A stretch of DNA of 64,000 bases from a virus. The stretch lies in the IMG/VR virus record IMGVR_UViG_3300005529_000001, positions 144,882 through 208,881 of that record. The stretch is one strand, 5' to 3'. Shown here piece by piece: positions 5,382 to 57,956 of the stretch. How positions within the stretch are numbered: the stretch's first letter is position 1; every line of letters begins with the position of its first letter. The notes below the pieces were generated by a model that did not search any database, was not told the origin of the DNA, and saw nothing but the letters and a program-made list of their open reading frames with translations. Both the position numbers and the translations under genes were made by a program.

Positions 5382-5390
5382 GTAAGTATG
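5382..5390 (-). promoter_or_regulatory. CATACTTAC promoter-like motif upstream of 4299-5366
   Basis: Minus-sense CATACTTACggccGGAGGtcgtaaATG. Confidence 0.35.
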
Positions 5391-5411
5391 TCCCTCAAGA
5401 AAACGCGGGTG

Positions 5412-5975
5412 TTACTTTTCAGGCAATCCTAGTTTGGCCCACAGCTGTTTGTTGTAGTTACCAAAAGGCCCCGCGAACAGGACAGAGGGTTTGACCCACT
5501 TGATGACGCCCGTCTCGGGCGTGTTGATCTCACCTTCTACTTCACACGCAAAAGTGTACGTGATGTAACCGTCATCTTCCTGGTGGGTGAAGACGTGGGA
5601 GAGCTTGGTCGCGGTCAGGCCCGTCTCTTCGTAGAGCTCACGGGCCGCAGCTTGTTCGGGAGTCTCACCGGGATCGACTTTACCACCCGGTAAACCAAAC
5701 GCTGATGGGTCGTCCTTGCGGCTGACGGCCAAAGCATGACCATCGTCTGTCAGGATCAGACAACACGCCGCCAGCTTCTTGCCTTGCATCTCCTGGTTCT
5801 CCTCGTTAGCTTCGTCATCAAGAATGTTGCTGCTAGCACCAGGCCTGATGCCCGCATCGCCCGTCGAGTTTCCTGTTGGGAACAACGGGCCTGCAACGCC
5901 GTCCTTGCCATACTCCTTGTTGCCGAAGCCCGTCAGGACTTCAACAATGTATTCACGGAGCAATCGTTTGCTCAT
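5412..5975 (-). CDS. NUDIX hydrolase
   Basis: Nudix box GLPGGKVDPGETPEQAAARELYEETGL. N-terminus MSKRLLREYIVEVLTG resembles the targeting-peptide family. Confidence 0.7.
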   Translation of the reverse strand: MSKRLLREYIVEVLTGFGNKEYGKDGVAGPLFPTGNSTGDAGIRPGASSNILDDEANEENQEMQGKKLAACCLILTDDGHALAVSRKDDPSAFGLPGGKVDPGETPEQAAARELYEETGLTATKLSHVFTHQEDDGYITYTFACEVEGEINTPETGVIKWVKPSVLFAGPFGNYNKQLWAKLGLPEK

Positions 5976-6184
5976 TGGTATCGCTCCGGGTTGAACGGGC
6001 TCATTCCATGCTTACCACCGGGCGTTGGACACGAAGTGGTACTGGTGCAAATGGGCGTTTCTGTTGTGGAATGCCCGTCGTCAGAAACAACCCTGTGTTG
6101 CTGGCACTGTGAGCACAGGTTGCTGATGACAACGAGGCCAAACATGAACGCAAGCAGGAACAGGATGCCCTTGTTTACTTTCAT
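5972..6184 (-). CDS. Small secreted Cys-rich protein
   Basis: Signal-like N-terminus (MKVNKGILFLLAFMFGLVVIS) and 7 Cys. 4-nt overlap with the NUDIX gene start. Confidence 0.3.
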   Translation of the reverse strand: MKVNKGILFLLAFMFGLVVISNLCSQCQQHRVVSDDGHSTTETPICTSTTSCPTPGGKHGMSPFNPERYQ

Positions 6185-6501
6185 CAGTCTTCACCCTCAC
6201 TCAACCTCGTGTCGAGCAAGTTGTACATCGTCTGTCTCGCGGCGTGTTTGTCGCCCCGGAAACGGCTGACAAGCATGGGCCACTTCCGAGCCACATAACG
6301 GTGGACGCGCAGCTTGTGATGGTGAGACCGTTCACCCATTTCTTCTAGCCACTCATCAGCGATGTGATGTGCTTCCTTGTCGGAAGGTTCGTCAGGAGAG
6401 TCTTGAAAGCCAGTCCCGTGTAGGACAGACATCATCCTGGGATCGATGCGTAGCTCCGCCAACGTGGCGTGAATGAACTGGCGCAGCAAGCTTGACATCA
6501 C
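6184..6501 (-). CDS. Hypothetical protein
   Basis: 105-aa ORF tiling the prevailing strand. N-terminus MMSSLLRQFIHATLAEL is targeting-peptide-like. Confidence 0.35.
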   Translation of the reverse strand: MMSSLLRQFIHATLAELRIDPRMMSVLHGTGFQDSPDEPSDKEAHHIADEWLEEMGERSHHHKLRVHRYVARKWPMLVSRFRGDKHAARQTMYNLLDTRLSEGED

Positions 6502-7754
6502 GTCCTCGGTTTCAACAACATCTTAACCAACCAGGTGATGGCATCGATGAAGCTCTGGAAGCCCGACTTGGCTGGCCCATGGACGGGGACAGGAGTGACT
6601 GGCGCGGGCAGAGGGGTGGGCATTGGCCCGGGTTGCACGGGCGGTGGAGGGGGCGGCGTGGGGGCCGGCTGGTCCTGCACGAGGACGGGGATGCCGAGCT
6701 TGTCTGGGTCCCACCACTCTTGCATGGGCCTGCCAAGGGACGTCAGGACGTTCCCGGTACCCTCCGTGATCGCGTTGTTGGCGCGGCCACCTCCGCCATG
6801 GTCAGCGATGCCGTTTGCATCGACATCGCTGAGACACCACTCAACGTGGTCGTTATTGGTTCCCGGCGTGTTGTAACGCATCAGAGCGCCACGCTTTGGC
6901 ATTGTCTTTCCATCAAACTTGACAAGAGCGCCCGTGTTGATGCCGATCTGTCGGACCCATGACACCGCCATGCCCGACACGTACTTCTTGTTCAGGATCG
7001 GGTCACGGACACCCGCCTCAGCCATGATGCCCAAAGCGGACGTTGCACAGTTGGTGGAGACGGTGACGACCGCGTTTGGGTCATCGACGCCACGTGCCAC
7101 AAGCTTGCCCAGCTCATCACGCCGCGTGCTGAGGTTGCAACCGACGTGCGACTTCACCAGCCTGACGATCCGGTCAGCTGGGCTCTCGTTCGCGAGCAAC
7201 GGTTGCTGGTTGACGGGAACGTTGCTGCTCGAGGGATCAGGATGGGTTGGTGGCGCTGGTGGAGGGGGAGGATCGATGGGAGCTGGGTGAACCAACGGCT
7301 GGCCATCGGGGGTCAAGAACAGCTGACGTTCGCGGACTCGCCGGTTGTAGAGGCCCTTGTCTTGAGTCAGCTTGCCGTTGATGACAGCGTGGCACCAGAG
7401 GAGCATCGCGTCAGCTGCGCCCGCAACATCGCCAGCATTTAGCTTGGTTCGCATCGACGAACCGGCCAACGAACCTGTGCCGCAGTTGAAGGTGAACGAC
7501 ACCAGGGCATCAAACATGTTCTGGGTCAAGCCGGAGTACGTGATGTCCTTGTTGACAGCACCTTCCGCAGTGCTCACGTCACCGGCTAGGATCTGCAACG
7601 CTTGGTCATGGGTGATGCCGTTTGGGAACGACTCACCAGGCCGCACAACGTGCCCGATCCCGATCGTTGGGATCCCAGCAATGTCCTTGTAAACGTGATC
7701 GACTTCCCCTTCTTCGCGTGCGATGAAGTTAAGTCCATTCTGGGACGTTTTCAT
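6498..7754 (-). CDS. Multidomain endolysin: N-terminal GH24 (T4-lysozyme-like) muramidase, Pro-rich linkers, Cys/His-containing C-terminal domain
   Basis: GLNFIAREEGEVDHVYKDIAGIPTIGIGH resembles the T4 lysozyme [21 protein letters not shown] catalytic region. PPPPPAPP linkers. Middle domain has conserved Cys (TNCATSA) and His (DHVEWC). C-terminal amphipathic helix. Confidence 0.65.
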   Translation of the reverse strand: MKTSQNGLNFIAREEGEVDHVYKDIAGIPTIGIGHVVRPGESFPNGITHDQALQILAGDVSTAEGAVNKDITYSGLTQNMFDALVSFTFNCGTGSLAGSSMRTKLNAGDVAGAADAMLLWCHAVINGKLTQDKGLYNRRVRERQLFLTPDGQPLVHPAPIDPPPPPAPPTHPDPSSSNVPVNQQPLLANESPADRIVRLVKSHVGCNLSTRRDELGKLVARGVDDPNAVVTVSTNCATSALGIMAEAGVRDPILNKKYVSGMAVSWVRQIGINTGALVKFDGKTMPKRGALMRYNTPGTNNDHVEWCLSDVDANGIADHGGGGRANNAITEGTGNVLTSLGRPMQEWWDPDKLGIPVLVQDQPAPTPPPPPPVQPGPMPTPLPAPVTPVPVHGPAKSGFQSFIDAITWLVKMLLKPRT

Positions 7755-7769
7755 GTCCCTAAATAGGCG
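7755..7769 (-). promoter_or_regulatory. CCTATTTAGGGAC start-proximal motif upstream of the endolysin gene
   Basis: Minus-sense cgCCTATTTAGGGACATG. Confidence 0.3.
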
Positions 7770-7777
7770 TGGGACGG

Positions 7778-8080: not shown

Positions 8081-8088
8081 GCCAGTAA

Positions 8089-8604
8089 CTAGGCTTTCAC
8101 CCGTGCGACTGCTTCATCAAACCAACGGCTGACAGTCTTGGGAAAGGGCCACATGTAACCGTAAGCGCTCGAGACGAACTGCTTCAAGTACCAAGCTCGA
8201 CGCTTGTCATCATTGTAATCGATCCCGTAATCTGCAAAAGCTTGGAGAGACTCTGCATACGCTTGCTGTTCCAGCTTGGCTCGGCAATAGGACAGGCCCA
8301 CCGGGAAAAGGATGAGCAAGTAAAGAAGGGCATACACGGGGTACGTCAACGTGCGTGATTGCCGCATGTGAACGCGCTCGTGACGCAGGATCGAGCACCT
8401 ATCGTCATCGCCGAACGTCTCCCAGCCATCAGGCACGTACACCGTGTGATAGATCGTCGTCACGTAGCTAGTCATGAATTGCTGGCCCAGGACGAGTCCA
8501 ACCAGCTTCATGAACCAGCTATCGTTCTTTTTAGCGATGTTGAAAGAGGGGAACTCTGTTTTTATCTCGGCGCACAGACCTTGATAATCAGGTGTGATTG
8601 TCAT
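8089..8604 (-). CDS. Hypothetical protein
   Basis: 171-aa ORF on the prevailing strand with tight spacing to neighbours. Confidence 0.4.
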   Translation of the reverse strand: MTITPDYQGLCAEIKTEFPSFNIAKKNDSWFMKLVGLVLGQQFMTSYVTTIYHTVYVPDGWETFGDDDRCSILRHERVHMRQSRTLTYPVYALLYLLILFPVGLSYCRAKLEQQAYAESLQAFADYGIDYNDDKRRAWYLKQFVSSAYGYMWPFPKTVSRWFDEAVARVKA

Positions 8605-13412: not shown

Positions 13413-13443
13413 GTCACCACCCTAACACGTCAGGGGGTGTTTT

Positions 13444-15510: not shown

Positions 15511-15525
15511 TCTCGTAAGTATCGA

Positions 15526-16869: not shown

Positions 16870-16901
16870 GCTGCCACCCTACTTTGCGGAGCGCTAAAAG
16901 A

Positions 16902-18323: not shown

Positions 18324-18338
18324 CCACCCTAAATAGGC
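18324..18338 (-). promoter_or_regulatory. CCTATTTAGGGTGG start-proximal motif upstream of 17235-18323
   Basis: Minus-sense gagCCTATTTAGGGTGGATG. Confidence 0.3.
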
Positions 18339-18800: not shown

Positions 18801-18821
18801 GCTACCACTGTAACCCAGGCT

Positions 18822-25961: not shown

Positions 25962-26734
25962 CCCAGCACCACAACTCCACCAACGACCGCTGCTTCCGTG
26001 AAGCTGCTGCCATGTGTCCAGATCCGACGGTCACGGTCGATGACACATGACCCACCCTTGTATGACATGTCACGTTCAGTGCCCACGCGGTTGCTGACGA
26101 CCACGTTTGCGCGTGTCTCCTCAACCAGCTCGACCCAAGCGTTGTCCGGGTAACCGTACGCAGCGCCCCAGTTCGTCAGCAGGGCGATGGTGTCAACGCT
26201 GCCCAGCTTGTAAAAACGCTGTGTTGTTGCATGGTGGATGTACGACTCACGGTAACGGTTCGATGCGTCTCTGCAGATCAGGACACCCAACCTTCCCGCG
26301 GGGGTGATGATGACCGGAGCGGGTGCCTCGCTGGGCTGTGCCCACAGGTTGTCGCTGCCATAGAGGTTGTGCTTCTGGGCGTTGCCCGCCAACCCGTTGG
26401 GTCCCACGACGGCGGCTGAGTTGTACAGCTTTCCCTCACAGAGCTCGGTGTAACCGAAGACGACGTAGCAACCAAACTTCCGGGTGATAGCTTCGAAAGC
26501 ACAGGTTTGGTAACCATCACGTGTCTGTGCGACCTCGACGGCTTCACGGGGCGAGTGCAGGTTGTAACCCCCGATACAAGTCTCGGGCAACACGACCAGC
26601 ATCGCGCCCTTGGCTGCAGCTTCGAACGTCAGCTCGAGCGCAGTCGCCAGGTTCTCTTGGACCCGCCCGAGCTTGGGCTCGTACTGGACCGCAGCGACAA
26701 CCTGTGTCTGTGGGATCGCGGTGACAAACTCCAT
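25958..26734 (-). CDS. Carbon-nitrogen hydrolase (nitrilase superfamily)
   Basis: Catalytic E-K-C motifs: LVVLPETCIGG, KHNLYG, VLICRDAS. Start set at the internal ATG (MEFVTAIP) forming TGATG with the upstream stop. Confidence 0.6.
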   Translation of the reverse strand: MEFVTAIPQTQVVAAVQYEPKLGRVQENLATALELTFEAAAKGAMLVVLPETCIGGYNLHSPREAVEVAQTRDGYQTCAFEAITRKFGCYVVFGYTELCEGKLYNSAAVVGPNGLAGNAQKHNLYGSDNLWAQPSEAPAPVIITPAGRLGVLICRDASNRYRESYIHHATTQRFYKLGSVDTIALLTNWGAAYGYPDNAWVELVEETRANVVVSNRVGTERDMSYKGGSCVIDRDRRIWTHGSSFTEAAVVGGVVVLG

Positions 26735-28230
26735 CACTTCTTGCCCTTCTTGGGAGACTCCTTGATCACGTTGGACCACTTCTCTCCGTTTGGCATCTCA
26801 ACGATGAAGATGCCCTTCTTACCGTGACGGTGGACGTTGACCTTGGTGCCCGCCCTGTACTGCGTCTTGTTTGGGTTCGTTGGCCGAGCCTCGACGCCGT
26901 CAGCGATGACGTACGGTCCCTTGTTATCAGCCATGACCATCGCGGCGGCTTCAGATAGCAACGGGCTCTTCGCTCGCTTGCTCTCGTCAAACCCGCTCCA
27001 GTCAACAGCAGCTGACTTGCCCGATGCCATCTTGACATCCTTGCTCTTGCCCGGGCGACCCACTGGCTTTGACGGCTTGCTTGGGTCAGCTGCAACGCTC
27101 TTGCCGCTGATGTTTGCAGGGTCATCCTCGTCAAGCTGTTCATCGCCCTCGCCCAACGGGTCCTCGAGATCTTCGGGCTTGGCTTTCATGTTGCGACGGA
27201 TAGTGTTGTGAAGGTACTCACGGAAACCGTCCAGCTCACGGACGATGTCTGGGTGGTCCTTCATCAGCTGGACATCAGCCGCGGTCAGCTCACCCGTCTT
27301 GTTCAGCATGCCGATGTAATCGTTCATTGCCGTCAAGACCAGGATCTCACGGTCATCTTCCGGCAGCTCATAAAGGAACTTGAACCGCAGCAACGCCTTG
27401 TCGACGGCTTGCTTGGCGCCTGACACCGACATGCCAGCTTCTTTGGCGATGTCCTCAAATGAAGCAGCGCCGACCTGGCCCAGAGCTCCGATCTCCTGGT
27501 GAGCGTGCTTCGGCTTCTTCTCAGCCTCTTCATCACCACCCTCTTCGTCTGGGAGATGGGGTTCTTCTTCAGCCGCGGGCTCCTCCTCGTACTTCTCGAC
27601 AGATGGGCCCAACGTCTTCCGCAGGTCTCCGACAGTCTTCTCGTGCCGCTTCTGGTATTCACCACCGTGAACGCCCATCGGGATCTTCTTTGCGACCACG
27701 TTGTTCGGGTTCGTGGCGGGCGACAAGTCTTTCTTCTCCTTGCCAGCTTGATCCAGGTCCGCCTCAGTCAGGCCACGTGCTTCCAGGATCGCCTTGCGGA
27801 TGCGTGCCCGCAGCATTTCTTCTACCTTGTTCGTCGTCGGCATCTTGCCCTCGTGTTGTTCCTTGTCTTTGCCGCTGTTGCCAGCGTTGTCGATCGCTTC
27901 TTGGCTACCGGCCACCATGGCTGCCTGGGTCGCAGCATCAATCTCGTCTTTTTCGCTACGCCTGTCAAGTGCAGTCTTGACCGCGGTGAACACCGCCGGC
28001 ATGTCGGTGTCAGGCAGGTTCTTGACCAGCTGCTGGATCGCCACTCCGAACTCTGTCTTGTCCTGTGGCGTGAAGTTCGGGTTGACGGGGTCAGTCACAG
28101 CGACGGACGGGTCGGTGATGGGATTGATCTTAACAGCCGGGCTCTCGCCCTCGCCTGACCATCCCGTCGAATCCAGGGCTTCGCGCACCATCTCCCGGAG
28201 CGCTTTGTCGCTGATGACGACCTTTGTCAC
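26734..28230 (-). CDS. DNA-binding protein with sigma-70 region-4-like HTH; CTS-like N-terminus
   Basis: SFEDIAKEAGMSVSGAKQAVDKALLRFK parallels sigma region 4.2 ([28 protein letters not shown]). Start set at a GTG with a perfect GGAGG SD 5 nt upstream, giving MTKVVISDKALREMVREALD. Lys-rich C-terminus. Confidence 0.45.
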   Translation of the reverse strand: MTKVVISDKALREMVREALDSTGWSGEGESPAVKINPITDPSVAVTDPVNPNFTPQDKTEFGVAIQQLVKNLPDTDMPAVFTAVKTALDRRSEKDEIDAATQAAMVAGSQEAIDNAGNSGKDKEQHEGKMPTTNKVEEMLRARIRKAILEARGLTEADLDQAGKEKKDLSPATNPNNVVAKKIPMGVHGGEYQKRHEKTVGDLRKTLGPSVEKYEEEPAAEEEPHLPDEEGGDEEAEKKPKHAHQEIGALGQVGAASFEDIAKEAGMSVSGAKQAVDKALLRFKFLYELPEDDREILVLTAMNDYIGMLNKTGELTAADVQLMKDHPDIVRELDGFREYLHNTIRRNMKAKPEDLEDPLGEGDEQLDEDDPANISGKSVAADPSKPSKPVGRPGKSKDVKMASGKSAAVDWSGFDESKRAKSPLLSEAAAMVMADNKGPYVIADGVEARPTNPNKTQYRAGTKVNVHRHGKKGIFIVEMPNGEKWSNVIKESPKKGKK

Positions 28231-28627: not shown

Positions 28628-28636
28628 GTAAGTAGG
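28628..28636 (-). promoter_or_regulatory. CCTACTTAC motif plus TATAGT and GAGGT SD upstream of 28232-28588
   Basis: Minus-sense CCTACTTACctgcggtgggctgtggTATAGTgcccatcaGAGGTaaccATG. Confidence 0.3.
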
Positions 28637-33236: not shown

Positions 33237-33244
33237 GACAGTAA

Positions 33245-33805
33245 CTATCGCCGGGCCAGAGCTTGGTAGATGGCTTCCTGCAGGGTCAACACCTCGACCC
33301 CAGCGCTTTTCAGGAGATCGATCCCATCAGTGATCCGATACGGGATCTCATAGACGACTCTGGCAATCTCCGCGTTGACGATCAGCTTCGCACACTCCTT
33401 GCACGGGCTGTTCGTCACGTACATGTGCTTCGGTCTGGCAAAGTTGTAGTCGCACTTGACGAGAGCGTTGACCTCAGCGTGGACAGTGCCGCTCTTCCCG
33501 CGTTCGAGCGATTCAACGTGATTGGGACCGCCCTTCCACATCCCGTTGTACCCTACGCTGAGCATCTGCGTGTTGTTCGACGAAACGACGATCGCTCCCA
33601 CTTTCAATGCCGGGTCGATCGAGCGCAAAGCGATTGTCTTTGCGACCTGCATCCAGACTGACGGCCAGGTCGGACGTTCGGGTTCCTTGTCCTCAACGAG
33701 AACAGTCAAGCAGAACTTGCACGTCTGCCCACCGGCATCATTCTCCACCCAATGATGGAAGATGTCTTTGGTGTTTGCTAGACACGCTTCGTTTAGGTTT
33801 CCCAT
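33245..33805 (-). CDS. dCMP deaminase (zinc-dependent cytidine/deoxycytidylate deaminase family) with N-terminal extension
   Basis: HAEVNAL (Zn His/Glu) and SPCKECAKLI (PCxxC). Resembles T4 Cd. Confidence 0.75.
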   Translation of the reverse strand: MGNLNEACLANTKDIFHHWVENDAGGQTCKFCLTVLVEDKEPERPTWPSVWMQVAKTIALRSIDPALKVGAIVVSSNNTQMLSVGYNGMWKGGPNHVESLERGKSGTVHAEVNALVKCDYNFARPKHMYVTNSPCKECAKLIVNAEIARVVYEIPYRITDGIDLLKSAGVEVLTLQEAIYQALARR

Positions 33806-39178: not shown

Positions 39179-40612
39179 TCAGGTAAGTAGGCCCATCCTG
39201 CGCATGGCGGCGGGAGTTGTTGCCTCGTAGGAGCACCGCTTCCTGATGACTTCCAACAGCTTCTGGTTGATGTTGTGACGGGCATTCTCCCGTGATGGAC
39301 ACTGAACACGCCCAATCGACCTGTCAAGCAAATCAACCAAATTGATGAGATTTACTTCACCCAGCACGTATTGGCTCACCCCAGCCTCCTCAGCCAGGCT
39401 CGAATACTCGTAGTTGTCGAGCCACAGTGGCATGCATCCCAACTCGACGCATTCTCGAGCAGCTGTCCCGCCATACGGATCCTTGTTATAGAGGCCCAGA
39501 GCGATGTGGGAGTTCCGTGCCACGTACTTGTACTCGTCACGGTTGAAAGTGTCATCCGTCAGCTTGACGTAGCCGTTGGCCCCACATTTCTCTTCGAGCT
39601 CAGCGTTAGAGAACTTGAAATTTGGATTGCCACACACTACGACGTAGTCCCGTCGCCGTTGTCGCAGCTGGGGAAGGATATCGAACATGAACTTCATACC
39701 GTTGGTATAGTCGCCGCTCGACGGAGAGATCCGATTGGGGAAGAACAGGACGCACTTTCCCTCCGTCTTGGCTTTCCATTCCGCCGCAGAAAAACGGACG
39801 TTCTTCATGTCAGGTTCCAGCAACGTCTCCGCCGAGGAGTACCCGTCGTCCCAGGGCATTGACTTGGCACGAACGTCATCAACCACGTCCTGGGTGAACC
39901 ACTTGCCCATGCTGTCAAAGAACTGCAACATCGCTGACTCGCACTGCCAGAAGTTGTAGTCGGCCCGGAGTGCGGCTTCACACTGGCCAAGCCACAGTGA
40001 ACACTCTTGCGGGAACTTGGGGACTTCAGGCACATCTACAAAGTGGGAGTGGACGTAGAACTTGGGTTGGTAACCACCGTTGATGTGAAACATCGCCTTG
40101 AAGTTACGAAGGTGCATCGGATCATTGATGTAGACCGCGTCGTACTTCAACTCTGGGTGCTTTTTGTGATTGTGGATCCCGATGCTCAGGGAGACCTTGT
40201 TGAAGTTGAGATCGTACCTGGTCGCCAGCGCGTTTGCCATTACTTCGTGCTGGATATAGTTGAGCCGGCCCCGGTCTTCTTTGGTCGGATCGACATAACC
40301 ATAGAGGCAATGCCAGTCAAGATCCGGGTTGACGATCCACGGATAATCAACGCACTGGCTAGCGTTTTCATAGTAGGTATCGAACAGCTTCGGTCCCATC
40401 ACGTCGATCTGGAGATCTGGGTTGCGGCGCAACATCTCTCGCACCCGCCCCATCACCATCTGCCACCCGCTGTCGCAAGCCAGGTCAAACTTGTTGTGTT
40501 TGTAGTTGATGTTACTCAGCTGAGTCTGGACTAGCAGGCGCATGCTTGAACCTTTCCCTGATGTCGGCGTGGTGTTCATCGCAGTGTGCACGTGCCTGCT
40601 CAAAAAGCGCAA
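39179..40612 (-). CDS. Putative glycosyltransferase (GT-B-like C-terminal domain)
   Basis: DPYGGTAARECVELGCMPLWL resembles the GT4 Ex7E motif (EGFGLxxLEAMAxGxPVI). 477 aa. The true start may be the internal Met at 40543 or 40579. Confidence 0.35.
   Translation of the reverse strand: MRFLSRHVHTAMNTTPTSGKGSSMRLLVQTQLSNINYKHNKFDLACDSGWQMVMGRVREMLRRNPDLQIDVMGPKLFDTYYENASQCVDYPWIVNPDLDWHCLYGYVDPTKEDRGRLNYIQHEVMANALATRYDLNFNKVSLSIGIHNHKKHPELKYDAVYINDPMHLRNFKAMFHINGGYQPKFYVHSHFVDVPEVPKFPQECSLWLGQCEAALRADYNFWQCESAMLQFFDSMGKWFTQDVVDDVRAKSMPWDDGYSSAETLLEPDMKNVRFSAAEWKAKTEGKCVLFFPNRISPSSGDYTNGMKFMFDILPQLRQRRRDYVVVCGNPNFKFSNAELEEKCGANGYVKLTDDTFNRDEYKYVARNSHIALGLYNKDPYGGTAARECVELGCMPLWLDNYEYSSLAEEAGVSQYVLGEVNLINLVDLLDRSIGRVQCPSRENARHNINQKLLEVIRKRCSYEATTPAAMRRMGLLT
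39183..39191 (-). promoter_or_regulatory. CCTACTTAC promoter-like motif upstream of 38656-39177
   Basis: Minus-sense gcCTACTTACctgacATG. Confidence 0.3.
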
Positions 40613-42272: not shown

Positions 42273-42304
42273 GGCTCTATCCTAACCTACCGCCCTGCAA
42301 ATCG

Positions 42305-42312
42305 ATACTTAG
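42305..42312 (+). promoter_or_regulatory. ATACTTAG promoter-like motif upstream of 42319-45432
   Basis: Plus-sense cgATACTTAGagagtcATG in the divergent intergenic region 42273-42318. Confidence 0.3.
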
Positions 42313-45300: not shown

Positions 45301-45432
45301 TACGCTGCACCTACAGACACCCAGTTCTCACCCGGAGAGCAAGCGACCATCCAGGTCGGTGCTGATGGCAAGCTGAAGGTCAAGAAAGTGGCTGGCGATC
45401 ACGAACAGACGTGGGACCCCGTCGAGGGTTGA
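42319..45432 (+). CDS. Large (1037 aa) protein with HEAT/LRV-type repeats; possible virion/ejected protein
   Basis: Clean 3.1-kb plus-strand ORF. Repeats of type VSTRSAVAANPKTSPETLYTLAKDQAVAVRASVASNAS (leucine-rich-repeat-variant-like). N-terminus MRVSLGVLRDYVSNLLVEN is CTS-like. ATACTTAG promoter-like motif upstream. Confidence 0.55.
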   Translation: MRVSLGVLRDYVSNLLVENRIDDAREKYPDIEEDVFQNLVANQPGGSNNKYLMWSAKQVDDEVMPEEVIMAIRLFHDNVHRLKQKDINQYESVEALDTAIDELQKNKSKSQEAKQAKADTQVIYNDDNWLVVRPYTADASCKYGAGSKWCISATASRNYFNSYSETNNKFYFVIDKKSTSNTPNSKFAIAIVAAGLAAAGREIQVYNASDSLVSLNTVASAVGSKWPEIWEKIQAHVAANPKTREVEDAERATEEHVAALLKGEKLSDQAMKKVAKSGKLSNQVIKKILGRYENYTGPTDYRDERQDIMNSLSSRASEMESEGAMAVLKWISENSANSYWRTSYLERMLAAAPFKPEDFREIAKTNDEEILANIFSNPATPDDVKRVISDAAMRFVSESATRKVYWELIKSGAITKEQMAHAMEMDNKRGSYRYLTSQILNHPEDVRMEPELVKMLTINNAGEFKNLLRIPNVPHDFAVKILSKLMSSESLKKYDMLELLRTTPLGPKQIEKLWADWPQATVRTALLQNPGIGEGNANKFAKSKNSAYRFSVAHNTITPVDALNTLSKDESVSTRSAVAANPKTSPETLYTLAKDQAVAVRASVASNASSPTNLVRALKRDSDDFVRKAARKTLKALDVTEAYIGMAMGMRGLLVEELTDDDVTPDIMNPSWRDIIPSTIDKEEFVAVFLLQNNGSATREEITKAYKDWMGSAGGAGELWKTNKWSDQIIRGIMSQGKGWFWSPPGINKGALFRLTPAGASAALDIIRKLAHLTNLSSPVQITSAKARPGKTYFVKGAEEALDVTGMEKGDLEVEEVAANYNNEPIKTDGKYTKLSPNRSWRQKRRQRSVKMFKYTSPTGEVKYTRELPKVSVPNNAKVQFIKTFHGQATNDRYSTSEPNRAIVKYNDKYLLVKFPMWAKEGGAVPDNSEKETNVPPPVRKSPPPRELTGEPAAAPARTGGGEAPAAPRGPKVGYKIYGRHRGAPAHTRLKGQAYAAPTDTQFSPGEQATIQVGADGKLKVKKVAGDHEQTWDPVEG

Positions 45433-49300: not shown

Positions 49301-50171
49301 CACGGTTCACCAGGTTCTGGGCTGGCAGCCGGTTGAACTGGAGCTCGAGGAAGTAGTTCCCCTCGCCGACGGCTTCCACCATCGAGTCATAGACGTTGGC
49401 CACAGCCTGGACGCACTTGTCCATCAAGACCTTGTCATCCAACAGCTTCTCGCTGAACTGGTCGAACTGGATCTTCTGCATTTCCTGGAAGACTGCGTAT
49501 GCCGGCATCCCACCGATGCAGGCTGAAGTGACGACCAGGTTACCGTCCTTGCCTGCCTCACGCAGGACCTTCCAGTCGACGCGGGGAAACTTGTAGAACC
49601 CGTTTAGGTATGCCTTGGACGAAGCCGCGAAGATTTGTTGGAGGCCCCTCTGGTTCTTGGGTAGGATGACGAGATGATGCCGACGATTGATCGGGTTGAA
49701 GTGCTTGGTTGACTTGGTTTCGTCCTCATTCTCAACAGTCAACGCATTGGTTGTCTCGATCTCTTCGGTCTCATCGGCCTGATCAACGACTGCGATGACC
49801 TTGGTCGGCAGCTCTTCTTCTTTGTCTTTTAGCTTTTTGGCAACTTTCTTGTCGAGCTTCGCCTTTTCAGCGGCTTCGTAATCACGTTGCCATTGCTCAA
49901 GGTCGGGATGATAGTACGCCTCGATGCCTGGGATGTACTTGAACTTCTTGTCCTTGTTGGACTTGGACCAGTCCTCGATCCAGAGCTGAGCATGCGCGTA
50001 CGAATTTAGGTTCCCGTGTTCCGTGATGGCATGGGCATCGATGCCGTTTGCCATGCAAAACTTAAAATGCTCGTCAGGATACCCCAGCCCGTCAAACGGT
50101 GAAAAACCCGTGTGATTGTGAAGACCAACAAAGCGATTCGGGACCCTGGACATGTGTGTCCATCGTACCAC
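46362..50171 (-). CDS. dnaE: DNA polymerase III alpha subunit (DnaE-type C-family replicase) with N-terminal PHP domain
   Basis: PHP motif LHNHTGFSPFDGLGYPDEHFKFCMANGIDAHAITEHGN. 1269 aa. Polymerase core region GRGSGGGSLVAYVLYITDLDPL and others. Confidence 0.9.
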   Translation of the reverse strand: MVRWTHMSRVPNRFVGLHNHTGFSPFDGLGYPDEHFKFCMANGIDAHAITEHGNLNSYAHAQLWIEDWSKSNKDKKFKYIPGIEAYYHPDLEQWQRDYEAAEKAKLDKKVAKKLKDKEEELPTKVIAVVDQADETEEIETTNALTVENEDETKSTKHFNPINRRHHLVILPKNQRGLQQIFAASSKAYLNGFYKFPRVDWKVLREAGKDGNLVVTSACIGGMPAYAVFQEMQKIQFDQFSEKLLDDKVLMDKCVQAVANVYDSMVEAVGEGNYFLELQFNRLPAQNLVNRAIIEFCRRNNKTQQLIVTGDAHYFNPDRWKDRELYKKLGWMNYTEINADSLPKSKEQLKCELYPKNAQQMWDEYCISKDGTGFYDDDLIADAIERTHDIAHQVIGEVPPDRSPKFPNKLLIPEGTPSFNHLVKLCMDGMRKRGLQDRPEYIDRIKEELGVIKQMKNADYFISYQKIMELARKVCLCGPGRGSGGGSLVAYVLYITDLDPLFWDLPFARFLSVYRKGAPDIDTDLADRDKVLEQLRGFFGWENVVPISNYNTFKLKTLVKDIGKFYGVSFEETNAATRSVEDEVRKATMKEGDDKNLFVLTYDEAMGFHCKAPKTAVSKSVCQGCTESCNTPVSPSFRSFIDKNPVVAESIKILFKQNRSLGRHAGGVLIADDLPNKMPLVTSKGDGGKREPQSPWVEGVNYKHLEKIGEFIKYDLLGLETLRLIERTIELILIKEGKPHAFDDVKAWYEEHLHPSRVNFNDPKPYEVYEKAKWGGIFQLTSQGAQRLFVKAKPKSIIDIATLTSIYRPGPLAAHVDKLYLEAKNDGKELEWGDHRINDILKKTNSCIIFQEQVMELAEKVAGFPKDKCDEVRRAIMKRSISGGEAAKKAAQETRDGFVQGCIKNGYTDKVANNLYDKILYFAGYGFNKAHAVAYAIDSFWCAWLMTYYEEQWLSAYLEAYSTTPVKRAKAFGEARALGYTIVPIDINHAGLGWTVLPGKKLMPSMTSVKGVGESAVEEIIQMRPINSIEEMLWNEDGTWRPSKFNKKALEALIKIGAFESVGCIGEDKVFKSYKHMHETLLGEYTDTVEKKKGTGIMVERVREHAALIRRSTKKDPHEGRKNFYELARALAETDARDEWTNRERVEFNAFYFGTSDPTQMFEQAMLSKLDKMGVIPIEDLEHGDNRFCWFVTVLAAGKKGGKPTAGLQKKTKKGKGYIQAFVTGPVGKPVRLTVWGREDLYEPFKLMAAEVRRDDYGFATSAYKVKEIA

Positions 50172-50202
50172 TCGTCAAGTCAGTCCTACACCTTAAACGA
50201 CA

Positions 50203-50224
50203 AACGGGTCCAATCGGACCCGTT
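50203..50224 (-). terminator. Intergenic perfect hairpin (9-bp stem AACGGGTCC / GGACCCGTT, 4-nt loop) between the small membrane gene and dnaE
   Basis: Seen directly in the sequence. Followed in minus sense by GTCGTTTAAGG, a weak T-run. Confidence 0.3.
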
Positions 50225-50542: not shown

Positions 50543-50551
50543 GTAACTATG
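50543..50551 (-). promoter_or_regulatory. CATAGTTAC promoter-like motif upstream of 50249-50524
   Basis: Minus-sense CATAGTTACttgacGGAGGattcaatcATG, the same architecture as upstream of 4299-5366. Confidence 0.3.
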
Positions 50552-52682: not shown

Positions 52683-52713
52683 AAAGTAGGCCCCCGCACC
52701 GCTCGTGTTCAGC

Positions 52714-52722
52714 CATACTTAC
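52714..52722 (+). promoter_or_regulatory. CATACTTAC promoter-like motif upstream of 52728-53687
   Basis: Plus-sense agCCATACTTACccatcATG in the divergent intergenic region with the azurin gene. Confidence 0.35.
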
Positions 52723-55212: not shown

Positions 55213-55221
55213 GTAAGTATG
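55213..55221 (-). promoter_or_regulatory. CATACTTAC promoter-like motif upstream of 54009-55193
   Basis: Minus-sense CCATACTTACccccAGGAGccgtgcacgcATG. Confidence 0.35.
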
Positions 55222-55225: not shown

Positions 55226-55450
55226 TCAGGGGCGTCCCCTCTTCATCGGTCGAGACAGTCCCATCTTCTCAAGGTACGAGCTGATCTGCTTCTTGACATC
55301 GTTGGGCACCATGACGCTTTCTTTCTGGTGCGCAGGATCGTCTTCGAGCAGCTCGCTATATGTCTCGTCAGGCCGGGAGCCACCCCAACAATCGGGTTCG
55401 ATCTCCTCAGATAACAGGTTCCGTAGCTGGCCCAGGGTTAAGCGCATCAA
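55226..55450 (-). CDS. Small protein with CTS-like N-terminus
   Basis: MMRLTLGQLRNLLSEEIEPD. 74 aa. Confidence 0.4.
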   Translation of the reverse strand: MMRLTLGQLRNLLSEEIEPDCWGGSRPDETYSELLEDDPAHQKESVMVPNDVKKQISSYLEKMGLSRPMKRGRP

Positions 55451-55824
55451 GCACCCTCAAGGGGGAACCAATCATCACGGTGTGGGTCCCAGGTTGCCAG
55501 CTCGACTTGCGGCATCTCAGCCATCGAGACCCGTAATTGCTGTCCGATCTTGAACCACAACGACCGGGCCTTGATGACCTGTGGATCGTCAGCAAACGGG
55601 TAATCTGGGAACATGTCAGGAACGACTTCGGCCCACGCGTCAGCAGCGCCGGGGAACATGTGCTCGACCTGGGCAGTTGACAGCTCTTGGTTCTCTTCTT
55701 CGACCTTGCCGAGCTTGAATTGCCGGCCGCCGGGCTTAGTCTTTCGCAGGCCTCCTGACGGTGTCCCGAACTCGTTCAGAGCCTCAGCAAGCAGCTGCCG
55801 GACCTTGCCCCATGTCGTTTTCAT
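55447..55824 (-). CDS. MKTT-family protein
   Basis: MKTTWGKVRQLLAEALNE. 4-nt overlap with the downstream gene. Confidence 0.45.
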   Translation of the reverse strand: MKTTWGKVRQLLAEALNEFGTPSGGLRKTKPGGRQFKLGKVEEENQELSTAQVEHMFPGAADAWAEVVPDMFPDYPFADDPQVIKARSLWFKIGQQLRVSMAEMPQVELATWDPHRDDWFPLEGA

Positions 55825-56007
55825 GGAGACTAAATACCACGATCTCCCTGTCTAGACGCCGACGAGCACGGCGGAGACCCTTCTTGCGTCCCCACCGCCA
55901 GCTCGCGTGGCGTTTCTTGTCACGGTAGCACGGGACCATGCCCGCGTGGAGACCGTCCCAACCGTGCATGCTGGGACGCTGAGCGCGGATAACGCTAGCC
56001 GCCGCGC

Positions 56008-56538: not shown

Positions 56539-56605
56539 TGTACGTCACGTCTCCCATCTCGCCAGTTTTCACAATCCTATATCTAGGACGCACGATTGTG
56601 CACCG

Positions 56606-56992
56606 TCATTTGAAGGTAATCGAGTGACCGCAGCCACACCGTGACGCTTCACGAGGATTGTCAAACTCAAAACCCTGCTTCATCAACGTCTTTGTCCAAC
56701 TCACTGTTGAACCCGACAAGTAAATGGCTGACTTCTTGTCAACCATGAAAATCAAGCCGCCCTCTTGCCATGAAATGTCCCTGAGTCCGGGCATGTCGTA
56801 CTCGAAACCAAGGTAGTAAGTGAAACCCGAGCAACCCCCGCCCGTCAGCCCAAACCGGTAACCCACAGGACCCATTCCGGGATCCCTCTCGCCCAGCGCC
56901 AGCTGCTTCTGGAACTGCTCGAGGGCCTCAGGAGTAATCTTGACGACGGGGTCCATTGCCACACCGTACCGAGAACGCAAATTCTTGTTCAA
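56606..56992 (-). CDS. IscA/HesB/ErpA-type iron-sulfur cluster insertion protein
   Basis: GGGCSGFTYYLGF and C-terminal CGCGHSITF signature Cys residues. Confidence 0.7.
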   Translation of the reverse strand: MNKNLRSRYGVAMDPVVKITPEALEQFQKQLALGERDPGMGPVGYRFGLTGGGCSGFTYYLGFEYDMPGLRDISWQEGGLIFMVDKKSAIYLSGSTVSWTKTLMKQGFEFDNPREASRCGCGHSITFK

Positions 56993-57942
56993 GCCATCGC
57001 AAAGTCAAACGATACCATGCCGGTGTCAGCATCCATGGTGCACATCGCGCCGACGGGCACCGGGATCGTCCAGTCACCGTGAGAGAAGCTATAACCGTAC
57101 ACGCAAGGTGGTCCCTCGCTCAGGTACTGCACCAAGACGTCATCGATGCTTGGGACTTTGCCGTCACGCTTCTGGGGTACGTCGCAGAACTCCCCGACCA
57201 CGATGCCCGCGATCTTGTCAAGGACTCCGGCGAGCCTACAATGGATCAGGAGACGAGCGATCACCTCTCCGTCCTTGTGAACGTCCTCGATGAAGAGGAT
57301 CGCGCCTTCAAAATCAGGACAGAATGGCGAACCGAGCAACGTGCAAAAAGTGTCAAGGTTGCCACCGATGATGTGGCCCCGGGCTTTTCCGGGTGATACC
57401 GTCCTGGGCATGTATTGGTTGATGGTGAAGGGCTTCTGCTCCCATGGCTCGGGCGACATCATGAACTGCGTCGCAAACCGCAACGACTCTTCGTCGGTGT
57501 AACGAAAGTGTTGGCCCTCGTCAACCCGGATCGCTGGGTACTGCCCGTTGATGCTGATCAAGCCCGCTCCGGCAAGGATGCCGTTGTTTAGAGCGGTGAT
57601 GTCGCTGAGGCCGATGAGTGCACGTTGGCTCTGGCGGATCGCGCCATAATCAAGGTACGGGAGCAGCTCACCTGAACCCATGCCGCCGAGACAGGTATAG
57701 ATGCCCTCGATTCCTGGCGCGGTGAATGCCCACATCAGCTCCTCCACCCGGTCCATCAAGGGGGCCGCGTGGATGTCTAACGTGTTGAGGGTCTTGACAT
57801 TCTTGCCCAAGACGGGCTCTAAGCCACATTCCTTGATGATATCAAGGCCAGCAACGAGCTCGTCAGTCCGGATGGGCGAAGCAGGAGCAACAATGGCTAC
57901 ACGCGCACCAGGGTTGATCCTCTTGGGAGCGATGAAGGGCAT
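56989..57942 (-). CDS. Peptidase S66 family LD-carboxypeptidase (LdcA/MccF-like)
   Basis: N-terminal ARVAIVAPASP motif typical of S66. Start set at the ATG (MPFIAPK), 5 nt downstream of CCTACTTAG. Overlaps the IscA gene start by 4 nt. Confidence 0.6.
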   Translation of the reverse strand: MPFIAPKRINPGARVAIVAPASPIRTDELVAGLDIIKECGLEPVLGKNVKTLNTLDIHAAPLMDRVEELMWAFTAPGIEGIYTCLGGMGSGELLPYLDYGAIRQSQRALIGLSDITALNNGILAGAGLISINGQYPAIRVDEGQHFRYTDEESLRFATQFMMSPEPWEQKPFTINQYMPRTVSPGKARGHIIGGNLDTFCTLLGSPFCPDFEGAILFIEDVHKDGEVIARLLIHCRLAGVLDKIAGIVVGEFCDVPQKRDGKVPSIDDVLVQYLSEGPPCVYGYSFSHGDWTIPVPVGAMCTMDADTGMVSFDFAMA

Positions 57943-57947
57943 CGACC

Positions 57948-57956
57948 CTAAGTAGG
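57948..57956 (-). promoter_or_regulatory. CCTACTTAG promoter-like motif upstream of S66 peptidase gene
   Basis: Minus-sense gaCCTACTTAGggtcgATG. Confidence 0.3.

Follow-up and report, generated by a model that had tools for sequence, protein, structure and literature searches.

The region analyzed here (the window) is a 64-kb stretch of DNA. The genome from which it derives is that of a 369-kb uncultivated jumbo phage. Gene starts were taken from a codon-usage caller, with a partial cross-check against database calls. A short element, (A/C)TA(C/G/T)TTA, precedes about 16 genes of the window and is termed class 2 below, while host-type TGnTAGRRT promoters are termed class 1. The class-2 sites are given first; those labeled "additional" had been missed by the first-pass annotation.

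5382..5389 (-): ATACTTAC; GGAGG 5 nt downstream, ATG 5366; 355-aa product (gene 4299-5366) similar to a phage amidase/peptidase region; sole site within a strong hairpin (z=-3.8)
7759..7766 (-): CTATTTAG; 5 nt to ATG 7754; gene 6498-7754 with a phage lysozyme domain
8085..8092 (-): CTAGTTAC; 5 nt to ATG 8080; 100-aa protein; additional
15515..15522 (-): ATACTTAC; 5 nt to ATG 15510; 90-aa protein, N-terminus MRTTVGRLRQ...; additional
18329..18336 (-): CTATTTAG; 6 nt to ATG 18323; 362-aa protein, codon bias strong, N-terminal signature present; site kept ahead of the orthologues in L158-L164
24191..24198 (-): CTAGTTAT; AGGAG 4 nt downstream, ATG 24176; Cys-rich 126-aa protein; additional
28628..28635 (-): CTACTTAC; 40 nt to ATG 28588; host-type extended -10 TGTGGTATAGT in tandem (28606-28616); heads an operon with a sigma4-like HTH gene; site kept in L158, L159 and L162-L164
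31718..31725 (+): ATACTTAT; 22 nt to ATG 31747; divergent, 27-bp shared intergenic region; 91-aa protein, N-terminus MTEQLLRQFIKE; orthologous counterpart at L159 6812
33241..33248 (-): ATAGTTAC; 5 nt to GTG 33236; 93-aa protein; additional
39183..39190 (-): CTACTTAC; 6 nt to ATG 39177; within the 3' end of the upstream gene; 173-aa protein, N-terminus MDEKSLRALVREE
42305..42312 (+): ATACTTAG; 7 nt to ATG 42319; divergent, 46-bp shared intergenic region; 1037-aa LRV-repeat protein
50543..50550 (-): ATAGTTAC; GGAGG 6 nt downstream, ATG 50524; 91-aa hydrophobic protein
52715..52722 (+): ATACTTAC; 6 nt to ATG 52728; divergent, 51-bp shared intergenic region; 319-aa protein
55213..55220 (-): ATACTTAC; AGGAG 5 nt downstream, ATG 55193; 394-aa LRV-like protein
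55830..55837 (-): variant GTATTTAG with G, not A/C, before TA; 6 nt to ATG 55824; 125-aa protein, N-terminus MKTTWGKVRQLLAE; additional
57948..57955 (-): CTACTTAG; 6 nt to ATG 57942; S66 LD-carboxypeptidase

For the last gene ATG 57942 was favored over the database GTG 57960, since the alignment with a bacterial homologue of 317 aa spans residues 1-317. Further features needed below are:

26734..28230 (-): sigma-70 region-4.2-like HTH protein, 498 aa, HTH at residues ~250-288
42279..42284 (-): representative class-1 -10 hexamer TAGGAT, 6 nt to ATG 42272; belongs to the divergent partner of the 42319 gene
50162..50170 (-): host-type extended -10 TGGTACGAT, 8 nt to the database-called DnaE start (ATG 50153)
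50195..50224 (-): intrinsic terminator AACGGGTCC-gatt-GGACCCGTT then TGTCGTTT, MFE -18.2 kcal/mol

Enrichment, geometry and conservation of the element

All 11 strings quoted in the first-pass annotation were located at the coordinates and on the strands given there. Eight of them match its 9-mer consensus CMTAYTTAS exactly, and those at 50543, 42305 and 31716 are one-mismatch variants. Using dinucleotide shuffles of the window as reference, 8 matches to the 9-mer were found on both strands versus 0.57 expected, a count reached in 0 of 100 shuffles. The core is better expressed as the 7-base (A/C)TA(C/G/T)TTA, with 16 matches in the window versus 5.2 expected (16 reached in 0/100 shuffles). 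Fifteen of these copies and the one G-variant are sense-oriented and located 4-40 nt upstream of a start, so that the earlier count of about 11 gene starts, although based on real sites, was too low by five. The proposed confinement to gene boundaries was nearly right: the 7-mer copy at 32020-32026(-) is without a nearby start, and TAGTTA copies with a preceding G at 5455 and 22573 (+ strand) are intragenic.

The positional enrichment is strong. All nine TACTTA copies point towards a predicted start and lie no more than 45 nt ahead of it, a placement open to 3.2% of strand positions (binomial P=3.5e-14); the same holds for 16 of the 19 TA[CGT]TTA copies (P=1e-21). Among all 4096 hexamers TACTTA was the top-enriched in the -40..-1 windows (Bonferroni 6e-9), and the motif is essentially absent from coding interiors in the window. 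The original observation was thus confirmed and is stronger than first described, while its interpretation was partly supported.

In a logo of promoter-context sites the base preceding TA is A or C in 55/56 cases and T in none. Conservation is limited to 7-8 bp, nothing further is conserved beyond 8 bp, C is the commonest base right after the motif, and no -35-like conservation was seen. The sequences surrounding the sites were found to share no RNA structure (mean z of about 0 and -0.5) and gave no match to an Rfam family. The two arrangements recognized before were recovered: the hexamer is followed by 5-7 nt and ATG/GTG at 10 window sites, and by 4-6 nt, GGAGG/AGGAG, 6-9 nt and ATG at 4. 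Two sites depart from these spacings: that at 28629 lies 40 nt from its start codon, and that at 31719 lies 22 nt from its own and has no clear Shine-Dalgarno sequence. The hexamer-to-ATG distance peaks at 5-6 nt and the hexamer-to-AGGAG distance is about 6 nt too, the sequence of the 5-6 nt spacer before the first mRNA element being not conserved. This register is that of the host-type TAnnnT hexamers at leaderless genes.

Related jumbo phages gave the motif result again, in 15 contigs and in an AT-rich subgroup, covering a GC content of 35-63%, with sites falling at orthologous positions with diverged flanks. In 9 close relatives, the window being excluded, ATACTTA was the top upstream 7-mer (19/22, Bonferroni 3e-24), as it was in the AT-rich subgroup (GC 35-38%; 8/12, Bonferroni 3e-7). 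TACTTA or TAGTTA ranked first or second among hexamers in L158, L159, L160, L162 and L164; L163 contains leaderless-spaced sites at an enrichment that is not significant. Ahead of orthologues of the 394-aa gene, hexamer and AGGAG were retained in 8 relatives while the flanks diverged. We are aware that the relatives share ancestry and that the replicate counts are not fully independent; selection on the motif is argued despite this, because the flanks diverge around it.

Two proposed promoter classes and their transcription units

About 18 host-type TGnTAGRRT leaderless promoters were found in the window, their TAnnnT hexamers lying 5-6 nt from the start; the spacing of host-type TAnnnT peaks at 6-7 nt. 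Besides the representative TAGGAT, TAnnnT examples are located at 34987-34992, 24638-24643, 16876-16881, 13419-13424 and 4257-4262. TANNNT adjoining open reading frames is an experimentally validated -10 element of leaderless genes (PMC12340547). The two hexamer populations are discrete, class-1 TAGRRT having T as its last base and class-2 TAbTTA having A there and A/C in front. Shared intergenic regions of the 19 divergent gene pairs are mostly 35-53 bp (27 bp at one site), with the motif on 16 gene sides and TAnnnT at 4-8 nt on 14 others. As a typical pair combines one class-2 with one class-1 element, these short regions leave no room for other promoters. The terminator at 50195..50224(-) closes the unit of the motif-driven 91-aa gene. 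The order motif, 91-aa gene, terminator, extended -10 and DnaE indicates separate units, and DnaE is assigned to class 1, not class 2, by its own host-type extended -10 at 50162..50170.

Reading of the element

The proposal of a phage-specific promoter held up against the positional check and the refuting criterion suggested in the first-pass annotation, and is supported by the start-proximal position and by conservation at orthologous sites in relatives. We consider it probable that (A/C)TA(C/G/T)TTA acts as a compact promoter of the -10 type, lacking a -35 element, and that it is particular to a clade of uncultivated jumbo phages with genomes of about 300-370 kb. The class-2 element would stand in for the host-type TGnTAGRRT -10 hexamers, whose register it shares. 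RNA polymerase would melt the DNA at the hexamer and initiate 6-7 nt downstream, a start position derived from spacing alone, either on the A of ATG or on the A/G opening the Shine-Dalgarno sequence. The transcript would then be leaderless or headed directly by its ribosome-binding site. Compared to sigma-70-type promoters, class 2 has an invariant A where those need T(-7); compared to class 1, it has TT at positions 4-5 and A/C in place of the extended -10 G. Due to these differences at positions recognized by the primary sigma factor, the reader is most likely host core RNA polymerase with a phage-encoded sigma-like or specificity factor, and a sigma acting here would have to be an unusual one, given that position 6 is A and sigma-70-family -10 recognition requires T(-7). 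A phage-encoded reader is also suggested by the motif being unchanged across GC 35-63%, while the second promoter type varies (TAGRRT in GC-rich, TATAAT in AT-rich phages) and AT-rich members have Shine-Dalgarno-led instead of leaderless leaders. The HTH protein encoded at 26734-28230, which belongs to a large jumbo-phage family and bears the N-terminal signature, is no more than a candidate for this factor: its assignment as HTH is weak, with E-values of 1e-5 or worse per member and an hhalign probability of 37%, and fold searches with the protein were negative. Across the ~82 kb of the 369-kb genome that were inspected, neither a sigma nor an RNA polymerase domain turned up.

Of the two mechanisms offered before, the -10-like element is favored by the register, the 7-8 bp extent and the unconserved spacer. 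Promoters of T7-like enzymes are normally conserved up to +1, over a length of about 17-23 bp. Here such a promoter, running to the start site, is disfavored, with C commonest after the motif, nothing conserved beyond 8 bp and 5-6 unconserved bases before the inferred start. More broadly, the motif might serve an RNA polymerase encoded by the phage as its promoter, be that enzyme single-subunit, multisubunit or virion-delivered, in which case it might mark early instead of late genes; we regard this as unlikely, yet it is the alternative that survives best. Constancy of the motif across hosts and GC content would fit it, as would the A at hexamer position 6, which misfits sigma-70 rules. Precedents come from phiKZ/AR9-type jumbo phages, whose virion RNA polymerases read AT-rich motifs centered near -10, from jumbo phages encoding RNA polymerases, in which bioinformatics picks up a motif of roughly 10 nt close to -10, ahead of early operons (PMC7598289), and from Thermus phage P23-45, in which a phage-RNA-polymerase-dependent early class stands beside host extended -10 late promoters (PMC4124052). 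The P23-45 case shows that a motif specific to the phage may just as well belong to early genes. However, the 82 kb inspected yielded no RNA polymerase gene, the host-type promoters imply that the phage does use the host polymerase, and the gene content looks late (lysozyme, LD-carboxypeptidase, amidase-like and CTS-like proteins).

Recognition by a phage DNA-binding regulator such as the 26734-28230 HTH protein, activating or repressing in the manner of actinobacteriophage stoperators or start-associated sequences, with the motif not itself recognized by polymerase, is improbable. The motif is asymmetric and its 7-8 bp are the size read by a single HTH, the HTH recognition helix hardly varies among 87 homologues, and a conserved motif copy precedes the operon of the HTH gene itself. 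The motif was also present in 9/9 further genomes sampled, all HTH-encoding and thus a set without negative controls. Against this stands, besides the weak HTH assignment, that the motif occupies the -10 position at 10 window sites which offer no other -10-like hexamer at a workable distance, so that melting must still be nucleated at the motif.

We give very little credence to a host promoter class, read by an alternative host sigma or tolerated as a primary-sigma -10 variant. The register is shared with host-type hexamers, and TACTTT, one base off the motif, serves as class-1 hexamer at 52683-52688; nevertheless, the motif is the same in phages of GC 35-63% that differ in host-type promoters and leader styles, the class-1 and class-2 populations are discrete, and it was absent upstream of the single bacterial homologue examined. 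Least credible is an action in RNA, as endonuclease processing site for leaderless or Shine-Dalgarno-first mRNAs or as non-Shine-Dalgarno translation signal: strict sense orientation, the fixed distance to start codon or Shine-Dalgarno sequence and copies at tight co-directional junctions inside would-be read-through RNA (e.g., site 39184) agree with it, but strand-switch genes with 27-53 bp shared regions would be left without promoter, equal spacing to ATG and AGGAG is unexpected for a ribosome-binding signal, shared structure and Rfam matches are lacking, the register is that of validated -10 hexamers, and the terminator parts one unit from its neighbor.

Content and probable timing of the proposed class-2 regulon

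The suspected link to CTS-like genes turned out to be statistically real: the N-terminal (CTS-like) signature is carried by 22/78 proteins from motif-headed units versus 5/144 from class-1 units (Fisher 1.9e-7), and by 16/58 versus 3/99 when only relatives are counted. Three cell-wall hydrolases, the lysozyme, the LD-carboxypeptidase and the amidase-like protein, are encoded in motif-headed units. Nucleotide-metabolism operons beyond the window, 18 kb in total length, contain zero motif sites, and no virion genes were identified in the 64-kb window. The hydrolases, the CTS-like link and the exclusion of DnaE by terminator and promoter would suit a late or cargo assignment, which gene content makes plausible. 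The compact -10-type promoter would then govern a distinct, probably late regulon, rich in capsid-targeting-like N-termini and cell-wall hydrolases.

A short sense-oriented element upstream of gene starts

The hexamer TACTTA was found nine times in the window, and every copy preceded a predicted start by 5-40 nt in the sense orientation. With the third position relaxed to C, G or T, 19 copies were obtained, 16 of them promoter-like. Using the 3.2% of strand positions located no more than 45 nt upstream of a start as background, binomial probabilities of 3.5e-14 (TACTTA, 9/9) and 1e-21 (TA[CGT]TTA, 16/19) were obtained. In the sense windows from -40 to -1 TACTTA ranked first of all 4096 hexamers for enrichment (Bonferroni 6e-9) and ATACTTA ranked first among the 7-mers. 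Positional enrichment relative to starts, which the first-pass annotation had named as a check on its promoter-like motif, is therefore present in the window by both the binomial values and the hexamer scan. All eleven strings listed there were found in place, and the exact 9-mer consensus derived from them occurred in 8 copies on both strands versus 0.57 expected from dinucleotide-preserving shuffles. The estimate of about 11 gene starts carrying the motif included only real sites, but was an undercount, as five more sites with the same geometry were found at 8085, 15515, 24191, 33241 and 55830. A literature search with the string TACTTA returned incidental matches only.

For a refined consensus, the 16 window sites were aligned with 40 promoter-context sites of close relatives, giving (A/C)TA(C/G/T)TTA. 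The base preceding TA was A or C in 55 of the 56 sites and T in none, while non-promoter copies mostly carried G or T there. The element is usually followed by C or G, with C prevailing, and no conservation is seen over the 5-6 nt after that; in this genome an additional C stands in front. Information was confined to 7-8 positions with none at upstream positions, so that there is no -35-like element. The refined 7-mer occurred in 16 copies in the window versus 5.2 expected. An orphan 7-mer, CTATTTA at 32020-32026 on the minus strand, is not close to any start codon. Its position is ~300 nt upstream of the superoxide dismutase gene start and antisense to the end of a 91-aa plus-strand gene.

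Spacing, leaderless starts and unit boundaries

The 50-nt upstream regions of every gene were listed. About 18 window genes without a Shine-Dalgarno sequence (SD) carried a TAnnnT hexamer of host type 5-6 nt before the ATG, for example TAGGAT, TAGGGT, TAGACT or TAAGAT, often with TG or TGn in front.

Examples of host-type hexamers of the form (T)TGnTAGRRT before SD-less ATGs
42279-42284, minus strand, host-type hexamer
34987-34992, minus strand, host-type hexamer
24638-24643, minus strand, host-type hexamer
18807-18812, minus strand, host-type hexamer
16876-16881, minus strand, host-type hexamer
13419-13424, minus strand, host-type hexamer
4257-4262, minus strand, host-type hexamer

Plotted as a histogram, the distance between TAnnnT and start peaked sharply: at 6 nt for 15 genes of the window, and at 6-7 nt when 15 other genomes were counted. 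In Deinococcus, TANNNT hexamers next to open reading frames were shown experimentally to be bona fide -10 elements driving leaderless mRNAs (PMC12340547), and the arrangement is common in Actinobacteria and Deinococcus-Thermus (PMC3160421). The host-type hexamers of the window are of exactly this kind. Their architecture is that of a classic leaderless promoter and implies that leaderless translation is abundant in the host.

The motif occupied the same register within one base, with a spacing peak of 5-6 nt before the ATG in the window and in the 15 other genomes. At 10 of the 16 window sites the architecture was leaderless: an SD was missing and the hexamer, at the -10 position, preceded the start codon by 5-8 nt. 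Where the motif stood farther from the ATG, GGAGG or AGGAG began 4-6 nt after it. As the spacing is alike for ATG and for GGAGG/AGGAG, the constant distance is that to the first functional mRNA element, whether ATG or SD. Such a constant distance is expected if transcription from a promoter always begins 6-7 nt further downstream, and is not expected of a ribosome-binding signal. On spacing alone, the 5-6 nt from hexamer to ATG or AGGAG fit a putative sigma-70-type start 6-8 nt downstream of the hexamer. Some starts implied by motif and leaderless geometry differed from the database calls (57942 vs 57960; 33236 vs 33200; 15510). The leaderless ATG at 57942 of the S66 peptidase was backed by a 317-aa bacterial homologue aligned over residues 1-317.

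Divergent genes were analyzed in 19 pairs from the window and nine relatives, most of them sharing intergenic regions of 35-53 bp. The motif was found on 16 gene sides at 4-25 nt from the start and TAnnnT on 14 others at 4-8 nt; the usual pair combined one motif and one TAnnnT back to back. Genes at strand switches must have promoters of their own, and the motif was accordingly read as a promoter there. An alternative model, in which the motif marks an RNA processing site, would leave these divergent genes without promoters. The window holds three real plus-strand genes (31747, 42319 and 52728), all in motif-bearing divergent pairs. At 42319 a symmetric TATCCT could in principle replace the motif, while 31747 and 52728 have no other candidate.

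Unit boundaries were visible behind the motif copy at 50543, where a clean intrinsic terminator (50195-50224, minus strand) comes after a motif-driven 91-aa gene, with an extended -10 element of host type next in line.

Extended -10 element before DnaE
50162-50170, minus strand, TGGTACGAT, 8 nt before the database DnaE start at 50153

As terminator and extended -10 stand before DnaE, the motif unit and DnaE form distinct units, and DnaE falls into the host-type class. The DnaE start itself was placed at 50153 in the database and at 50054 by our own gene caller. The motif copy at 28628 stands in tandem with the host-type sequence TGTGGTATAGT. A generic scan for -35/-10 promoters and terminators returned 7 promoter-like sites versus 7.6 expected and was uninformative.

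A structured RNA element at the sites, either a shared fold or upstream terminators, was rejected, as folding of the 50 nt upstream of the 16 sites gave a mean z of 0.02 against dinucleotide shuffles; the 66 nt around the sites gave -0.54, and no Rfam family was found in the window. A strong predicted hairpin (z=-3.8, 5340-5400, minus strand) was observed at the site 5383 only. Here, the stem is formed by the motif region and the region of the start codon (GGACATACTTACG...CGTAAATGTCC), which leaves the SD in the loop, and this predicted fold may provide site-specific control.

Replication in relatives and the genes behind the element

The window belongs to a metagenomic contig of 369,506 bp (ENA ERZ27279688, k141_1055159), as identified by exact protein matches. 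The two ends of this contig meet within the window at about 13223-13363 with an overlap of ~141 bp, the assembler's k; as the window crosses these overlapping ends, the genome is probably circular or circularly permuted, with about 369.4 kb. The window has a G+C content of 55.8% and ~93 genes, nearly all on the minus strand. Recognised functions comprise replication, nucleotide metabolism and repair (DnaE-type polymerase, ThyA, thymidine kinase, dCMP deaminase, CCA-adding enzyme, RNA ligase and methyltransferases), a lysozyme and an S66 LD-carboxypeptidase, next to many proteins without known function; no tRNA genes were found. Two adjacent paralogues of an HslV/proteasome-like peptidase (35591-36148 and 36153-36722, both minus strand) are kept in all syntenic relatives. 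Nucleotide searches revealed no similarity of the window to cultured phages. Searches with three proteins, DnaE among them, gave no relative above ~30-40% identity, and therefore no annotated genome was usable as a guide. DnaE relatives were located on IMG/VR contigs of up to 340 kb, and the source is an uncultivated jumbo phage. No close relative of the superoxide dismutase was found among species genomes. A gene on one Lentisphaeria MAG contig (JBAZJM010000001.1) shares 56% identity with the S66 peptidase and is the sole close homologue of any window gene in bacteria; no motif lies upstream of the Lentisphaeria gene. An NCBI assembly (GCA_020049755.1) includes a 142-kb contig of this phage clade (JAHZTO010000113.1). 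Both contigs are possible leads to the host; the Lentisphaeria match is too weak for naming it.

With the window left out, ATACTTA was the top upstream 7-mer in nine close relatives (DnaE 64-88% identical, GC 45-62%), with 19 of 22 copies upstream (Bonferroni 3e-24), and TAGTTA had 14 of 17. In eight relatives the orthologues of a 394-aa gene kept the hexamer and AGGAG, while neighbouring bases differed. Six more genomes, reached via homologues of another window protein, were strongly syntenic contigs of 142-359 kb with a GC of 55-63%. TACTTA or TAGTTA was the first or second hexamer in five of them; the sixth (L163) had leaderless-spaced sites, with an enrichment that was not significant. An AT-rich subgroup (IMG/VR contigs L012, L020, L026 and L027; GC 35-38%, DnaE 47% identical) again showed ATACTTA as top upstream 7-mer (8/12, Bonferroni 3e-7). 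The leaders of this subgroup were 16-25 nt long and contained an SD, and the other enriched hexamer was TATAAT, not TAGRRT. In other distant DnaE relatives the motif was absent. As the motif stays constant while host-type promoter and translation-initiation style vary, these comparisons give an indication that the recognising component would be phage-encoded.

Among motif-driven proteins, a similar amphipathic peptide at the N-terminus is frequent (for example MKTTWGKVRQLLAEALNE, MRLNLRDLQAAVKRTLDEE or MDEKSLRALVREEIERAL); it is described by M(K/R)xx(L/V)xx(L/V)(R/K)x-h-h-x-E and ends in hydrophobic-hydrophobic-x-Glu. A first test of this signature with an HMM was discarded as circular, since its seeds came from motif genes, and a class-blind regular expression ([LVIM][RKQ].[LIVMFY][LIVMF].E within the first 28 aa) was used instead. 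It matched 33 of 341 proteins versus 2.2 expected from the rate in protein bodies. In motif-headed units 22 of 78 proteins matched, compared to 5 of 144 in TAnnnT-headed units (Fisher 1.9e-7); in the relatives alone the figures were 16 of 58 and 3 of 99. The link between the motif and genes with capsid-targeting-like N-termini, already noticed in the first-pass annotation, is thus real.

Examples of window genes whose proteins carry the N-terminal signature
55447-55824, minus strand, signature carrier
25016-25564, minus strand, signature carrier
25572-25961, minus strand, signature carrier
55226-55447, minus strand, signature carrier
30287-30964, minus strand, signature carrier
31747-32022, plus strand, signature carrier
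38656-39177, minus strand, signature carrier
5412-5975, minus strand, signature carrier
54009-55193, minus strand, signature carrier, leucine-rich-repeat-variant (LRV) protein
42319-45432, plus strand, signature carrier, LRV protein
26734-28230, minus strand, signature carrier, 498-aa helix-turn-helix (HTH) protein

Past the N-terminus no paralogy was detected among the signature proteins, which are otherwise unrelated. T4 proteins carry capsid-targeting sequences, and in T4 and in giant phages prohead proteases cleave at Glu-specific sites (PMC9026906, PMC3012670). By sequence, the signature resembles both, being a short conserved N-terminus on unrelated proteins with a hydrophobic-x-Glu end. 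No prohead protease gene was found in the inspected region, and no capsid or tail genes were identified in the inspected sequence. Motif-driven genes include a lysozyme, an LD-carboxypeptidase, an amidase/peptidase-like protein and the two LRV proteins, of which the 394-aa one matches PDB 1LRV (E=4e-7). No motif site occurs in the nucleotide-metabolism operons, 18 kb in all, that flank the window. With the capsid-targeting-like proteins and wall hydrolases behind the motif and zero sites in these operons, a late, cargo- or virion-associated class, as proposed in the first-pass annotation, appears plausible.

Probable promoter type and a candidate reading factor

Judged by position, geometry, conservation and genome architecture, the interpretation of the element as a putative promoter is well supported. 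In the terms of a sigma-70-type hexamer, all 16 window sites and the 40 sites of relatives have T as first and A as second base (A-11), which holds by construction of the TA[CGT]TTA search, and position 6 (T-7) is A everywhere, likewise set by the search pattern. In contrast, the host-type hexamers of the window all end in T, and the one near-intermediate, TACTTT, behaves like a member of the host-type class. The motif further differs from these and from TANNNT promoters by a fixed TT at positions 4-5 and by A/C upstream instead of the extended -10 G, and the two populations are discrete. The positions of difference are the very ones at which primary-sigma recognition is strictest. The motif shares with the TANNNT promoters of Deinococcus-Thermus and Actinobacteria the position 5-7 nt before a start codon, the missing SD and the lack of an obligatory -35, but is also used with an SD-first leader.

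T4 late promoters (TATAAATA) are read by the host core RNA polymerase in concert with gp55, a sigma-like protein of the phage, and with gp33 and the sliding clamp. Like the motif, they are short, AT-rich, phage-specific -10-only elements of ~8 bp without a -35, and the pattern ATA-NN-TA is common to both. The architecture is alike; the T4 consensus itself differs from (A/C)TA(C/G/T)TTA and ATACTTA. T4 late genes include head-internal proteins with an N-terminal capsid-targeting sequence (PMC9026906, PMC3012670). Unlike T4, the present phage has a DnaE-type replication polymerase, is not T4-like and has many transcripts that are predicted to be leaderless. Homologues of gp55, gp33 or gp45 were not found in the ~82 kb inspected of 369 kb, and neither were sigma or RNA polymerase genes; 30 window proteins were scanned with PHROG and Pfam, and precomputed Pfam calls were used over the ~82 kb. 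Jumbo phages whose early promoters are read by virion RNA polymerases encode split beta/beta' multisubunit enzymes. A scan of viral contigs for the beta' motif NADFDGD gave at least 120 matches, mostly from giant viruses, and contigs of this clade were not among the matches listed.

The RNA-polymerase-encoding jumbo phages phiKZ, AR9 and PhiR1-37 carry AT-rich motifs of ~10 nt near -10 of early operons, which are read by virion RNA polymerases (PMC7598289). As here, the signal is bioinformatic, ~8-10 nt long, AT-rich, start-proximal, clade-specific and of non-host consensus. However, phiKZ-type phages are independent of the host polymerase, while the present phage also has many host-type promoters; their motifs precede early operons, while here the gene content looks late or cargo-like and no phage RNA polymerase was found in the ~82 kb inspected. 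The Thermus phage P23-45 combines a phage-specific class, used early by a phage RNA polymerase, with a late class of host extended -10 promoters (PMC4124052). The present phage likewise has a host extended -10 class and a phage-specific class, and its gene content suggests that the timing may be reversed. The case of P23-45 is at the same time a warning against inferring timing from promoter class.

The start-associated sequence of cluster K mycobacteriophages is 13 bp long and includes the ribosome-binding site, and the stoperators of cluster A are repressor sites. Both are, like the motif, short asymmetric sense-oriented repeats directly before some gene starts; unlike them, the motif contains no SD, occupies the -10 position and serves leaderless starts. 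Of the two mechanisms considered in the first-pass annotation, the -10-type element is preferred and a promoter of T7 type is disfavoured. T7-like promoters are conserved over ~17-23 bp up to +1, with a purine (G) start straight after the block, while the motif has 7-8 conserved bp followed by 5-6 unconserved nt. For a single-subunit polymerase of this type, the motif is too short and stands at too great a distance from the inferred start, and the following base is mostly C. Further resemblances were rejected: the yeast mitochondrial ATATAAGTA has the opposite orientation, the Bacillus sigma-K CATA-N3-TA has the wrong spacing and its CA is unconserved in the clade, and the Bacteroidetes TAnnTTTG does not fit. 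As a putative phage-specific promoter class the element is of a known kind; what is unusual about it is an A in place of T(-7), its use with leaderless starts and its conservation over a large clade of uncultivated jumbo phages.

A lead to the factor that reads this promoter class, not an identification, is the 498-aa protein at 26734-28230 (minus strand). It is strongly codon-biased, lies in the operon behind the site 28628 and bears the N-terminal signature. More than 225 relatives were retrieved with it, many on contigs of 200-360 kb. When 87 members were searched one by one, 65 matched Sigma70_r4_2 (Pfam; best E 4.9e-5) and 24 matched Sigma70_r4, and the top NCBIfam models by member count were all sigma-factor models (SigZ 50/87, sigma70-ECF 30/87). 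The sigma-model matches covered only model positions ~110-162, the HTH of region 4.2, and hhalign against five E. coli sigma factors gave a single match, to region 4.2 (P=3.6e-4, probability 37%). A weak likeness to the region 4.2 HTH is thus suggested. For region 2, responsible for core binding and -10 recognition, neither a Sigma70_r2 match in the 87 members nor an hhalign alignment was obtained. Across the family, the residues of the recognition helix hardly vary. The protein also has a C-terminal beta domain, and fold searches with it were negative. In a sample of HTH-encoding genomes only, all nine further genomes carried the motif, including the most divergent (37-41% identity), which is consistent with a link between HTH protein and motif. 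We consider it rather unlikely that the 498-aa protein founds a new family of phage transcription-initiation factors which, capsid-packaged and delivered with the DNA or made in bulk, would redirect the host RNA polymerase to 7-bp promoters breaking the T(-7) rule and so create a leaderless regulon of injected cargo in a widespread clade of 300-370 kb phages.

If the promoter interpretation is true, standard annotation would be improved, as several starts mis-set by standard gene callers would be placed correctly by motif, leaderless geometry and homologues. An element in the -10 register with A in place of the sigma-70 T would point to an unrecognised sigma-like factor or a different polymerase, and would offer a target for biochemistry. 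The motif would also flag a set of probable capsid-packaged cargo proteins. A signature of 7 bases would sort the genes of a widespread uncultivated jumbo-phage clade, whose motif-carrying contigs of 140-370 kb come from many metagenomes, into regulons from sequence alone. Finally, one promoter used with leaderless starts in GC-rich and with SD leaders in AT-rich members would be a natural comparison, and this contrast would show in what way one transcription signal of a phage goes together with translation signals specific to the host.
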